Positions 8,941 through 26,693 of a DNA stretch of 64,000 nucleotides are shown one piece after another. The notes beneath the pieces were generated by a model. The model was given only the letters and a program-made list of their open reading frames with translations, ran no database searches and had not been told where the DNA came from. The DNA is taken from assembly GCF_003334385.1 (NCBI RefSeq), contig NZ_QOWN01000011.1. One strand, written 5' to 3'. The position numbers and the translations under genes were made by a program. Source of the stretch: Escherichia coli. GTDB taxonomy: Bacteria > Pseudomonadota > Gammaproteobacteria > Enterobacterales > Enterobacteriaceae. How positions within the stretch are numbered: position 1 is the stretch's first letter; each line of letters begins with the position of its first letter.

Positions 8941-9395
8941 TGGAGTTAATGGTCGTTCATCCACATATTTTCTGGCTCAGTCTCGGCGGTTTGCTGCTGG
9001 CAGCCGAGATGCTGGGCGGAAATGGTTATTTGTTGTGGAGCGGCGTGGCAGCGGTGATTACCGGCCTGGTGGTCTGGCTGGTGCCGCTGGGTTGGGAGTG
9101 GCAAGGGGTAATGTTTGCCATCCTGACGCTGCTCGCCGCCTGGCTGTGGTGGAAATGGTTGTCGCGGCGGGTGCGCGAACAAAAGCACAGCGATAGTCAT
9201 TTAAACCAGCGCGGGCAGCAGCTGATTGGCCGACGTTTTGTGCTGGAATCTCCGCTGGTCAACGGGCGCGGTCATATGCGCGTCGGTGACAGTTCATGGC
9301 CTGTCAGCGCCAGCGAGGATCTCGGTGCAGGTACGCATGTTGAAGTCATTGCGATAGAAGGGATAACCCTACATATCCGAGCCGTCTCGTCTTAA
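8937..9395 (+). CDS. ybbJ: NfeD-like membrane protein partner of the SPFH protein, 152 aa
   Basis: Overlaps qmcA stop by 4 bp (ATGA); hydrophobic N-terminal two-thirds plus C-terminal beta-rich domain, as expected for NfeD. Confidence 0.85.
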
Positions 9396-9803
9396 TCACC
9401 CTGCCCGATGATGACAGCAGCCGGAGAGATTTTCGATAATCGGGCAGTCGGCGCTGTCATCGCCAGGGCAGGCATTCGCCAGTGCCAGCAGCTGGTCGCG
9501 CATGGATTGCAGCTCCTCAATGTGTCGTTCGATCTCCGCCACCTTCTCCAGCGTGCGCCGTTTGACGTCGGCGCTGTGCCGCTGCGGGTCGTTAAACAGA
9601 TTCACCAGCTCGCCGCTCTCTTCCAGGTTAAAGCCCACCTGCCGTGCCTGGCGCAGTAAGGTCAGTTCGTTGAGATGCTGCTGCGTGTAGGTGCGATAAC
9701 CGTTTTCGCTGCGCATCGGCGGCGTCACCAGCCCCTTCTCTTCATAGAAGCGAATGGCTTTGCTGGTCAGGCCGGTAATTTTTGCTACATCGCTGATGTT
9801 CAT
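9396..9803 (-). CDS. cueR: MerR-family copper-responsive transcriptional activator, 135 aa
   Basis: [28 protein letters not shown]; C-terminal [10 protein letters not shown] metal-binding loop; stop codon directly abuts ybbJ stop. Confidence 0.93.
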
Positions 9804-22366: not shown

Positions 22367-23671
22367 TTAACGATCCCAGTAAGACTCTTCCAGGCTGTCT
22401 TCACGCTCCGGCAAGCCGCGCGTTAAACGAGGTGAATGCTGGTTCAGTACCTGATAGCTCACACGGTTAGCATATTTACACACCTGCGCTAACGATGAAT
22501 AAGTTAACCAGGTGAATTTATGTTTGCTGGAGTTTGGTACGTTGCTACGATGGTAGCTGTTGGCGGTAATGTCATGCAGCAACGCTGCCAATGCGCCATC
22601 CCCCGCTCCATTAGTGTTCATGATTTTTTCCGGCCCGCCCATGTACGGCGCAATGTGCGAATATACACGCAGCGGATTCTGGCAATCCTTGTGGCGCATG
22701 GCGCGGCTAAACTCATACTGGTTGAATTCCGCTATAGCGCCCGGCAGCAGCGGATGCTGGGTTTTACGTTTCGCTTCGTCTTCGGTAAAGCCCGCCATAT
22801 ACAAGCCGATTGGCCCGGCGGTGCACAGCACCAGATCTACCCAGTCCAGCGCCTTGTCAGATGCCAACAACGGATCGCTTTCTCCGGTCAACGCTTCGGC
22901 TTCATCTTCGTTCATCGCAAGGATAGAGACGTGATCTTTGAGGAATTGCTGCCACCACTGCGGATTCTCGGCAATGACAAACTTGGTGCCCAGCGTCAGC
23001 ACCACCGGTACGTTATATTTCTTCGCGTACTCAATGGCTTTCATGGTTGCTTCCGGCATGGGTTCACCCGGCTTGCAACGCACCAGATATGAGGTGAGAA
23101 CCAGTGCCGAGGCTCCGGCAATCACATCTTCCGGAATGCTTTCAGCCCGCAGCTGGTTCATGTGGCCTGGACTGATAGCAAAGGTACGTTCCCCGGACTC
23201 GCCAATCAGCGTAAAGCAACGACCAATCGGGCCATCCACGCCTTGTAGATAGTTAAGATCGGTACGGCTGGAAGTGTTACACAGGTAACGATAGGCATAA
23301 CTGCCAATTTCAATATTGCTGCACATGACGCCCAGCAGCACCGAACGGTCGTCCGCGAGCACCGAGTAGTTGTGCATGGTGTTACCAATGGTGCCACCCG
23401 CAAACTGATGGGTAATCAGGTTTTTCTGTTTTAGTTCCTGATAAAGCGCTTCGGCTACATCATCCTCAATCACCAGTGAATGCCCGGCGCTTAATCCATA
23501 ACGCTCAATAAATTCATCATCCACTTTCGCTTCAATATCGACCAGCGTTTGATCGATACCCACTACCCAGGCAGCGCTGGTTTCGTTTTCTGGCTGGAAT
23601 TGCTGAAGCAGCGGATCGCGTGCGTTTACGGGGAAGTAATGTTTGGATTTACGTTTACCGGGAAATTTCAT
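22367..23671 (-). CDS. gsk: Inosine-guanosine kinase, 434 aa
   Basis: PfkB-family sugar-kinase fold; recognised sequence MKFPGKRKSKHYFPVNARDPLLQQ. Confidence 0.92.
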   Translation of the reverse strand: MKFPGKRKSKHYFPVNARDPLLQQFQPENETSAAWVVGIDQTLVDIEAKVDDEFIERYGLSAGHSLVIEDDVAEALYQELKQKNLITHQFAGGTIGNTMHNYSVLADDRSVLLGVMCSNIEIGSYAYRYLCNTSSRTDLNYLQGVDGPIGRCFTLIGESGERTFAISPGHMNQLRAESIPEDVIAGASALVLTSYLVRCKPGEPMPEATMKAIEYAKKYNVPVVLTLGTKFVIAENPQWWQQFLKDHVSILAMNEDEAEALTGESDPLLASDKALDWVDLVLCTAGPIGLYMAGFTEDEAKRKTQHPLLPGAIAEFNQYEFSRAMRHKDCQNPLRVYSHIAPYMGGPEKIMNTNGAGDGALAALLHDITANSYHRSNVPNSSKHKFTWLTYSSLAQVCKYANRVSYQVLNQHSPRLTRGLPEREDSLEESYWDR

Positions 23672-23822
23672 GGTTGTTTTTACGGGTGGTTAACTGAGCG
23701 GCGAATGTTAACACAATCTGACGGGAGCGCGCGAGACGCAGCCAGTTTCAATATCAGCAGGCGGGATCGCATTTTCATGGCAGTGGTTCCTTACAATGAC
23801 GTAATTTGAAAGGAGTTTTTGT

Positions 23823-24782
23823 ATGAAGCCGGAAAACAAACTACCTGTTCTGGACCTTATTTCTGCTGAAATGAAGACCGTTGTGAATACTCTTCAGCCG
23901 GATTTACCGCCCTGGCCCGCAACGGGAACGATTGCTGAGCAACGACAGTATTACACGCTTGAGCGCCGATTCTGGAATGCGGGCGCTCCAGAAATGGCAA
24001 CCAGAGCTTACATGGTTCCAACAAAATATGGGCAGGTGGAAACACGTCTCTTTTGTCCGCAGCCAGATAGCCCAGCGACGCTATTTTATTTGCATGGAGG
24101 CGGTTTTATTCTCGGCAATCTCGATACCCACGATCGCATCATGCGCCTGCTGGCAAGCTACAGCCAATGTACGGTGATTGGTATTGATTACACCCTTTCA
24201 CCTGAAGCGCGTTTTCCGCAAGCGATAGAGGAAATTGTGGCTGCTTGTTGTTATTTCCACCAGCAGGCGGAGGATTATCAAATCAATATGTCCCGCATTG
24301 GCTTTGCCGGTGATTCCGCAGGTGCCATGCTGGCGCTCGCCAGTGCGTTGTGGTTGCGTGATAAACAGATCGATTGCGGTAAAGTTGCGGGCGTTTTGCT
24401 GTGGTATGGGCTTTACGGATTACGGGATTCCGTGACTCGTCGTCTGTTGGGCGGTGTCTGGGATGGCTTAACGCAACAGGATTTGCAGATGTACGAAGAG
24501 GCATATTTAAGCAACGACGCGGACCGCGAGTCGCCGTATTACTGTCTGTTTAATAATGATCTCACTCGCGAAGTTCCGCCCTGTTTTATTGCCGGGGCGG
24601 AGTTCGATCCGCTGCTGGATGACAGCCGTCTGCTTTACCAGACGTTAGCGGCGCATCAGCAGCCCTGTGAGTTCAAACTCTACCCAGGCACGCTGCACGC
24701 CTTTTTGCATTATTCACGGATGATGAAAACCGCCGACGAGGCTCTTCGCGACGGCGCTCAGTTCTTTACCGCTCAGCTTTAG
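23823..24782 (+). CDS. aes: Acetyl esterase (alpha/beta hydrolase, HSL family), 319 aa
   Basis: HGGGF oxyanion-hole motif and GDSAG nucleophile elbow. Confidence 0.93.
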
Positions 24783-25741
24783 CGATACGCGGCAACAAGA
24801 TTAGCCATCATTTCGATATGTTCCGGCGTGGCATTAAGCGCCGGAATATATTCATATTTTTTCCCGCCGGCACCGAGGAAGACCTCACGGTTTTGCTCGG
24901 CAATCTCTTCCAGCGTCTCCAGACAATCCGCAGCAAAGCCCGGGCACATCACCTGAATATGACCTACGCCTTTTTCTCCGAGCATTTTCAGCGTTTCGTC
25001 GGTATAAGGCATCAGCCAGGGTTCCCGACCAAAGCGCGACTGAAAGGTCATCATCACTTTTTCCGGTGCCATCCCCAATGCGGAAGCCAGTTCACGAGTC
25101 GTTGTGCGGCAACGTTGCGGGTAATCATCGCCTTCATCTGCATAACGCTGGGGAATGCCATGATAAGAGAGCAGTAGCAGATCCGGTTCGCCATGTTTGG
25201 CAAAAGAAGCGCGTACGCTGTTCGCCAGTGCATTAATGTAATCGTGGTTATCGGCGTAATCACGTATAAACGATATCCCCGGAATGCTACGTTTGCGCGC
25301 CAGAATGCGTGCCAGTTCATCCCATACCGCACCGACCGTAGAACAGGAGAATTGCGGATAAAGCGGCAGCACCACAATATGATCTACATGCTCTGCCAGG
25401 AGTTCATCTACGGCGCTTTCCAGTGATGGCGAGCCGTAGCTCATTCCCAGCGCTACGGGCATCTCCGGTAAACGTTGTGCCAGCGCCTGCTGTTGCTGGC
25501 GGCTGTAAACCATCAGCGGCGAGCCACCTTCCATCCAGACAGAGGCATACAGCTTCGCCACACGCGGCGAGCGCAGCGGCAAAATCACGCCGCGCAGCAA
25601 TGGCCACCATAACAACCGTGAGGTATCAACCACGCGTCTGTCGCTTAAAAATTGTTTCAGATAGCGTTTTACCGCTTCAGGTGTGGGGGCATCGGGCGTA
25701 CCCAGGTTTGCCAGCAGGATACCGGTTTTAGTCTGACGCAT
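24779..25741 (-). CDS. hemH: Ferrochelatase, 320 aa
   Basis: Ferrochelatase-family sequence; 3' end overlaps aes 3' end by 4 bp. Confidence 0.93.
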
Positions 25742-25906
25742 TACCGCCTCTTATCGATTCAACTTGTTGATAATTGTAGCGGAAAAGTGAGGAAGAAGAA
25801 CTAATTGCTGTGAGAGGTCAAATCAGAAAAAGGAATAGCGCAGATTGAGGTTTTTGTAAAAGGCCGAATGAATATCCGGCCTGAGATTGCTGATAAGTTT
25901 GCTTGT

Positions 25907-25969
25907 GCGGGCCTGTTCCCCTCACCCTAACCCTCTCCCCGAGGGGGCGAGGGGACTGTCCGTGCGCGC
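25907..25969. repeat. GC-rich palindromic intergenic repeat (boxC-like) downstream of adk
   Basis: tcccctcaccctaaccctctccccgagggggcgagggga: imperfect palindrome; shares the 12-mer ctaaccctctcc with the hairpin after atl. Confidence 0.6.
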
Positions 25970-25976
25970 TTTCGAA

Positions 25977-26693
<717 letters not shown>

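Follow-up and report, generated by a model that had tools for sequence, protein, structure and literature searches.

The interlocked stop codons of Escherichia coli aes and hemH, and a candidate aes terminator within the hemH coding sequence

The convergent genes aes and hemH of Escherichia coli meet tail to tail with no spacer between their coding sequences, so that the 3′-end signals of each gene must lie inside the other, and the locus thereby raises the question of where the two transcripts end and how such an arrangement came about. The stretch of E. coli DNA that was analysed, 64,000 nucleotides in length and referred to here as the window, contains the two genes in the arrangement listed below. 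The overlap consists of the tetranucleotide TTAG, within which the stop codons have two nucleotides in common (24780–24781; the local sequence is CAG CTT TAG CGA TAC GCG).

23823..24782, + strand: aes coding sequence, acetyl esterase, 319 aa, with stop TAG at 24780–24782 (open reading frame list; RefSeq b0476)
24779..25741, − strand: hemH coding sequence, ferrochelatase, 320 aa, with stop TAA, the reverse complement of TTA at 24779–24781 (open reading frame list; RefSeq b0475)
24779..24782, both strands: TTAG tail-to-tail overlap of the coding sequences, read directly from the sequence

The original prediction, a 4-bp overlap of the 3′ ends of aes and hemH with stop codons that share nucleotides, is borne out to the base. 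In the K-12 MG1655 reference NC_000913.3, relative to which the window runs in reverse (genome position = 523796 − window position), RefSeq places hemH at 498055..499017 (+) and aes at 499014..499973 (−), i.e., with the identical 4-bp overlap. A 1-kb query around the junction is 100% identical to MG1655 and is matched in 5425 of the 5426 complete E. coli genomes, and the same count is obtained for a 106-nt junction segment. In the poultry isolate E. coli MB50 (NZ_CP073949.1, 3428171–3429948) the aes/hemH region carries an IS1A insertion; the match to the 1-kb query is split in two, and the annotation of this genome gives aes as a pair of alpha/beta-hydrolase fragments.

Both stops are genuine, and aes and hemH are two real convergent genes. 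Aes matches the NCBIfam equivalog NF007547 with 631 bits (residues 1–319 of the 321-position profile), the crystal structure of E. coli Aes (PDB code 4KRX) covers residues 1–319, and the alignment of Aes homologues extends through residue 319. HemH matches TIGR00109 with 448 bits over residues 1–319, and its C-terminus has the same aligned end position in most of ~50 Enterobacterales species, those without aes included; the protein ends in YR in most Enterobacteriaceae and in RR in Pantoea and relatives. A miscalled start or stop, for instance a hemH stop located elsewhere, had been named as the finding that would undo the predicted overlap. It does not hold, and a miscalled stop of either gene is ruled out by the end-to-end agreement with the family models, by the 4KRX structure and by the conserved HemH C-terminus.

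The overlap is already known: the annotations of all E. coli genomes contain it, and its class is common and well described. The tetranucleotides CTAA, TTAA, CTAG and TTAG produce a jump at length 4 in the length distribution of convergent overlaps, and the 4-nt stop–stop overlap is the modal class (Lillo & Krakauer 2007, PMC2174442), so chance is hardly the question here. The aes/hemH pair falls within this class, with coding sequences on opposite strands, tail to tail, and with genuine stops interlocked on TTAG at the modal length, and there is no essential difference between this pair and the class as described (PMC2174442); for aes/hemH the evolutionary route can also be reconstructed. The count for E. 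coli K-12 is about 58 convergent overlaps. Genes that overlap in this way must have their terminators in the coding sequence of the partner, and a rho-independent terminator was reported for one gene in 19 of the E. coli overlaps and for both genes in 2 (PMC2174442). Among the 11 convergent pairs of coding sequences that RefSeq annotates in the window, the intergenic distance is −4 for hemH/aes, 0 for cueR/ybbJ, 30–62 nt in six pairs and 132–315 nt in three. The analogy that had been drawn with cueR/ybbJ is thus correct in that there is no space for a terminator in that pair either, but not with respect to overlap, as the two genes abut with a 0-nt gap in RefSeq (window 9395–9396, genome 514400/514401). 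Elsewhere in the window, the 3′ end of the ChiX sRNA (genome 507204–507287, +) overlaps the 3′ end of the convergent ybaP (507286–508080, −) by 2 nt in RefSeq (window 16509–16510).

The history of the junction was traced in one genome per species scanned with HemH, which gave 72 loci. Among these, aes lies tail to tail with hemH only in Escherichia, Salmonella and Citrobacter, and decaying copies of aes are found in Trabulsiella, E. albertii and Escherichia sp. E1V33. In Pluralibacter, Superficieibacter, Pantoea, Mixta and Rosenbergiella, all of which lack aes, hemH is followed by a spacer of 55–84 nt and then by gsk on the same strand, and this spacer holds a hairpin followed by a T-run, e.g., GGCGGAGAATGTGCTATCATCCTCCGCCTGTTTTTC. 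Read parsimoniously, these gene orders point to an insertion of aes between hemH and gsk and to a loss of the ancestral spacer together with its hairpin; the insertion would be placed in the ancestor of Escherichia, Salmonella and Citrobacter, with loss of the spacer afterwards. In seven of the loci from Enterobacteriaceae without aes, the loop ATATGCTACTAT of the hemH–gsk hairpin is conserved and resembles a −10 box, and the spacer hairpin of these species may serve hemH as a terminator and gsk as a promoter at once.

The decaying copies differ in how much of aes is left. Two Trabulsiella loci have a 107-nt hemH–gsk spacer (L019 and L022, 3464–3570) with remnants of the aes 3′ end (GACGCCGTCGC) as well as the hairpin embedded in hemH that is described below, which points to a recent loss of aes, and another T. 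odontotermitis strain (L031) has retained a degraded aes with 53% identity. In Escherichia sp. E1V33 aes is mostly deleted (L007, 1400–1990), with a match to residues 1–83 only; there the hemH stop TAA has changed to CAA, and HemH is longer by two codons (QS before the new stop). In E. albertii NBRC 107761, by comparison with E. coli, ~12 nt are missing immediately after the hemH stop, and only residues 1–211 of Aes align.

Of the 26 species that have an intact aes, 19 show a −4 junction, all with a TTAG or TTAA overlap; −10 occurs in 3 species, +2 in 2 and 0 in 1, and T. odontotermitis, with degraded aes, has −11. The C-terminal tails of Aes differ between species (QL, QLR, QLK, ARIKMLR, QQINAAR and QQLDGAQR, each followed by the stop). 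Of the 20 species in which the hemH stop is TAA, 19 end aes in the −4 overlap; in the five species with TGA, whose complement TCA supplies no stop, the junction is +2 or −10. In the aes frame, TTA, the complement of the hemH stop, is read as T TAG or T TAA and thereby provides a backstop whatever the length of the Aes tail, which explains the recurrence of the −4 junction without recourse to selection on the overlap. We have seen no evidence for a dedicated function of the 4-bp overlap or for selection on the overlap itself. Among Citrobacter the junction is labile, and loss or decay of aes has occurred several times.

With no room downstream of the aes stop, the end of the aes transcript has to be sought within hemH. 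A consensus terminator scan identified a hairpin on the + strand, located 33 nt past the aes stop and within hemH codons 296–309, as follows.

24815..24852, + strand: candidate aes intrinsic terminator or 3′ stabiliser, a 15-bp hairpin (terminator scan, folding and synonymous constraint)
24853..24862, + strand: U-rich tail CAUAUUUUUU with 7 U in 10 nt, the complement of hemH codons G293-K294-K295-Y296

The stem of 15 pairs includes 6 GC pairs, closes an 8-nt loop and is followed by CATATTTTTT. The aes-sense RNA folds with −23.3 kcal/mol and the hemH-sense RNA with only −14.5 kcal/mol. When the same hemH codons were recoded synonymously 3000 times (mean −14.1, s.d. 3.3 kcal/mol), only 0.7% of the variants were as stable as the native sequence. 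Every species with intact (26) or decaying aes (5; the combined set is also counted as 29) has the hairpin in an unchanged register, at −18 to −24 kcal/mol, and it is absent or different in 22 species that lack aes. The aes-sense strand is the more stable one in 29 of 29 species, with a mean of −20.9 kcal/mol compared with −14.2 kcal/mol for the hemH-sense strand, and in the same species G·U cells, which are paired in the aes-sense RNA only, number 86 against 18 C·A cells. In the alignment of the 29 hairpin sequences 94.7% of cells are paired; covariation analysis of this alignment gave no two-sided compensatory changes, and shuffled sequences equal the observed pairing, so that the hairpin has no support from covariation. 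The U-tract is offset from the full stem by CAUA, and the corresponding T-run is kept in Escherichia and Salmonella and degraded in several Citrobacter (AUUGCUU or AUUUCUG; codons KQ or QQ). Beyond the hairpin, the aes strand has a C-rich, G-poor stretch (C/G up to 2.15) that could act as a Rho back-up. An Rfam search of window positions 23500–26100 gave no match at E ≤ 1.

The codons that encode the hairpin carry a synonymous constraint. Across 25 species with aes, the codons of hemH have a mean entropy of 1.0 bit, only 7% of those scored are invariant, and the least variable 12-codon windows of the gene are at codons 1–12 and 294–310. In the latter region I299 (ATT), P300 (CCG) and A301 (GCG) are invariant in the 25 species, and the loop codon L302 is free (1.5 bits). 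The synonymous entropy of the stem codons is 0.40 compared with the gene mean of 1.0, and degeneracy-matched resampling of the nine stem codons gives P ~1e-5. K-12 and Citrobacter or Salmonella have a third-position identity of only 0.51–0.58. The same hemH codons are unconstrained in 13 Enterobacteriaceae without aes (mean 0.98, at similar divergence) and in 20 Erwiniaceae; window entropy at the hairpin codons is 1.15–1.25 in these groups, ranking 231 of 278 and 179 of 254, respectively, with 1.9 and 1.7 bits at P300 and 1.6 and 1.8 bits at A301, and the contrast rests on one evolutionary event, as the species that carry aes form a single clade. From these sequence comparisons we conclude that hemH codons 296–309 carry a nucleic-acid element which is linked to the presence of aes and is read in the aes direction; most likely the element is an intrinsic terminator or a 3′-end stabiliser for the aes mRNA. 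The restriction of this hemH constraint to aes carriers was measured here, and we did not find an earlier description of it. On the aes side, codons 277–297 (window 24651–24714) show a mild entropy dip (0.69–0.76, mean 1.09), which on the hemH strand falls ~65–130 nt downstream of that gene's stop.

The hairpin at 24815–24852 is probably the aes terminator. In the proposed mechanism, aes transcripts would end at the hairpin and U-rich tract at 24815–24862, encoded by hemH codons 293–309 through constrained synonymous choice, and the aes mRNA would have a 3′ UTR of ~80 nt antisense to the end of hemH. Curated Term-seq data from three growth conditions (PMC7815308) contain no 3′ end on either strand between genome positions 498800 and 499399, and aes is weakly expressed; the same dataset detects the adk terminator at genome position 497939, 1 kb away. 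Expression levels are 12 RPM for aes and 200 RPM for adk (PMC7373196), and the weak expression of aes may be the reason why no Term-seq end is reported in the junction region. The supplementary tables of TERMITe and SMRT-Cappable-seq have no entry for aes or hemH.

For adk, the hairpin of the intrinsic terminator (AGGCCGGATATTCATTCGGCCTTTT, window 25857–25885, −) ends exactly at the Term-seq position 497939, which confirms the coordinate conversion. It lies 116 nt upstream of hemH, which implies that hemH has a promoter of its own (TTGACC...TACAAT, ~25820–25775). Between adk and its terminator is a G/C-rich palindromic repeat, CCCCTCGCCCCCTCGGGGAGAGGGTTAGGGTGAGGGG (window ~25915–25955, −), which resembles the boxC repeat family of E. 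coli.

The evidence considered in the following on transcript overlap by RNA-seq, on the effect of bicyclomycin and on antisense reads is taken from the literature. For hemH, a bicyclomycin-sensitive Rho termination region has been reported on the hemH strand at genome position 499332 (+) with a score of 4.07 and p = 6e-10 (Adams et al. 2021, PMC7815308), where regions were defined with 800-nt windows and positions are approximate. This peak corresponds to window position 24464, which lies antisense to aes at 315 nt beyond the hemH stop, and it is contained in the following feature.

24349..24505, − strand: C-rich, G-poor (rut-like) stretch in the hemH-sense RNA (C 33–41%, G 13–19%, C/G up to 2.9)

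The rut-like stretch extends from 274 to 430 nt past the hemH stop and is the most C-rich, G-poor part of the hemH-sense RNA; since it is antisense to aes, it is not translated as part of an annotated gene. The published bicyclomycin data and the C-rich stretch agree in position, and it appears that Rho stops the read-through from hemH once this has advanced ~315 nt in antisense to aes. The proposed sequence of events is that hemH lost its ancestral hairpin terminator, whereupon its transcripts would read into antisense aes until stopped by Rho ~300 nt downstream. A second Rho termination region lies 5 nt into the hemH open reading frame (window ~25736, −; genome 498060; score 4.02, p = 1e-17; Adams et al. 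2021, PMC7815308), and in the 25 species synonymous constraint on hemH is strongest at codons 1–12; these features may reflect premature termination or translational control of hemH.

The lack of intergenic room for a terminator had been taken to imply that the two mRNAs overlap in antisense at their 3′ ends, and this expectation is supported by the anatomy of the junction, by an excludon listing, by antisense reads and by the Rho region. Both hemH–aes and cueR–ybbJ are among the 165 convergent excludons of MG1655 that ExcludonFinder called from RNA-seq coverage in at least 50% of samples (PMC12288877, Table 1). In the wild type, the antisense signal on aes is unusually high, with 8.0 antisense and 12.3 sense RPM, and hemH has 2.5 and 34.3 RPM, respectively (PMC7373196, Table S1c); the antisense/sense ratio calculated from these data is 0.31–0.65 for aes, and for hemH it is 0.07–0.09 in the wild type and rnc-14 and 0.38 in rnc-38. 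The antisense reads on aes are consistent with read-through from hemH. No p19 dsRNA hot spot at the 3′ overlap is found among the entries listed, in which a hemH hot spot is given only near the 5′ end. We infer that the RNA overlap is far longer than 4 nt, with ~84 nt of aes RNA reaching into hemH and ~300 nt or more of hemH RNA reaching into aes. Combined from these separate datasets, the overlap of the mRNAs is probably ~0.4 kb, at about window 24464–24862, which would make aes/hemH a convergent excludon, with a possible regulatory effect.

Classic excludons, e.g., those of Listeria, have long antisense UTRs and a demonstrated regulatory outcome, whereas the hemH–aes excludon is known from transcript coverage. 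Bidirectional intrinsic terminators between convergent genes, reportedly seen with SEnd-seq by Ju and colleagues in 2019, solve the same problem of ending two converging transcripts in a small space; aes/hemH, however, has no common intergenic hairpin flanked by A- and U-tracts, the hairpin is inside a coding sequence, and hemH appears to depend on Rho. A bidirectional intrinsic terminator was rejected for this locus: only one side of the hairpin has a U-tract, and the hemH-strand version is on average 6.7 kcal/mol weaker, is followed by CGAAAUGAUGG, and lies inside the translated hemH coding sequence. The aes element also resembles rho-independent terminators inside the coding sequence of a convergent neighbour, with which it shares a GC-rich stem-loop and, in the E. 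coli sequence, a U-rich tract past the aes stop and within hemH, and from which it differs in the offset of the U-tract by CAUA and in its incomplete conservation in Citrobacter. In the convergent excludons of ExcludonFinder, where hemH–aes is named, terminators likewise lie inside the transcription unit of the neighbour, and the transcripts overlap when both genes are transcribed (PMC12288877).

Other readings of these data have to be weighed. Everything at the junction could be neutral, with the hairpin a by-product of the HemH peptide YIPA...TPEHI and of preferred codons (CCG, GCG, GAA), and with aes transcripts stopped by Rho or by head-on RNA polymerase collisions. The synonymous recodings, with their average of −14 kcal/mol, indicate that the peptide does predispose to a hairpin, and this reading would also agree with the lack of compensatory double changes, with the lack of a reported Term-seq 3′ end at the hairpin, and with the C-rich, G-poor stretch beyond it (C/G up to 2.15), which could serve Rho. 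A mere by-product would hardly explain, however, why the entropy of the stem codons is 0.40 rather than 1.0 (P ~1e-5), why P300 and A301 are invariant in 25 diverged species with aes and vary by 1.9 and 1.6 bits in relatives that lack aes and have the same amino acids, why the arms of the hairpin are fixed while the loop codon is free, or why stability is favoured in the aes sense in 29 of 29 species, and we consider it unlikely. Rather improbable, in our view, is the possibility that the pair is an excludon selected for regulation, in which hemH, induced by OxyR under peroxide, would lower aes through antisense read-through and collisions, perhaps also vice versa, and in which the zero spacer would have been kept for this reason. 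The pair is listed as a convergent excludon (PMC12288877), hemH is induced by OxyR (PMC8115020), the antisense signal on aes is high, and the tail-to-tail layout without a spacer is conserved across Escherichia, Salmonella and Citrobacter, all of which would fit such selection. The lability of the junction (+2, 0, −4 and −10) and the repeated loss or decay of aes argue against it, as does the fact that a p19 dsRNA hot spot at the 3′ overlap is not among the entries listed. We know of no functional link between heme synthesis and an acetyl esterase.

There is also the question of whether hemH has an intrinsic terminator of its own, for which a hairpin at 24755–24729 (−), followed by UUUUCAUCAU and located in aes codons 303–311, would be the candidate. 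The hemH-sense RNA does fold there into a 10-bp, GC-rich, bulged stem with four U, ~25 nt after the stop, but the terminator scan made no call at this position, the regional fold z-score is −0.88, and the overlying aes codons are highly variable (entropy 1.85 at codon 307 and 2.25 at codon 308). No Term-seq 3′ end is reported at this site, and the bicyclomycin-sensitive read-through is located further downstream. The hairpin was therefore rejected as the hemH terminator, and we regard a role of this kind as very improbable.

The account that we favour, and hold to be probable on balance, is that two genuine genes became interlocked through the insertion of aes, that aes would be terminated by the hairpin embedded in hemH and hemH read-through by Rho, and that the pair thereby forms a convergent excludon. 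A more far-reaching version is offered tentatively and seems to us doubtful as a whole. In this version hemH would have been recoded synonymously, in codons 296–309 and the AAAAAA run of the Lys-Lys pair, to carry the aes terminator, a constraint that would have arisen with the insertion of aes and that relatives without aes lack; together with the Rho-dependent read-through, the locus would then be a stress-responsive excludon in which OxyR-induced hemH dampens aes.

The 4-bp overlap itself is of little importance, as it represents the commonest convergent class and the pair has already been catalogued as an excludon. The addition made here is a hairpin embedded in hemH, read in the aes sense and under synonymous constraint; elements of this kind are known, and the present example is new and can be tested. 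On the favoured account, the locus would be a natural example in which the insertion of a gene removed a spacer and forced the coding sequence of the neighbour to carry a terminator-like RNA structure, with a measurable footprint in the form of synonymous constraint at hemH codons 296–309, seen only in species that carry aes. This is relevant when hemH is recoded or aes is deleted, it bears on models of synonymous-site selection, and it suggests a cheap comparative test for embedded terminators in other convergent overlaps.
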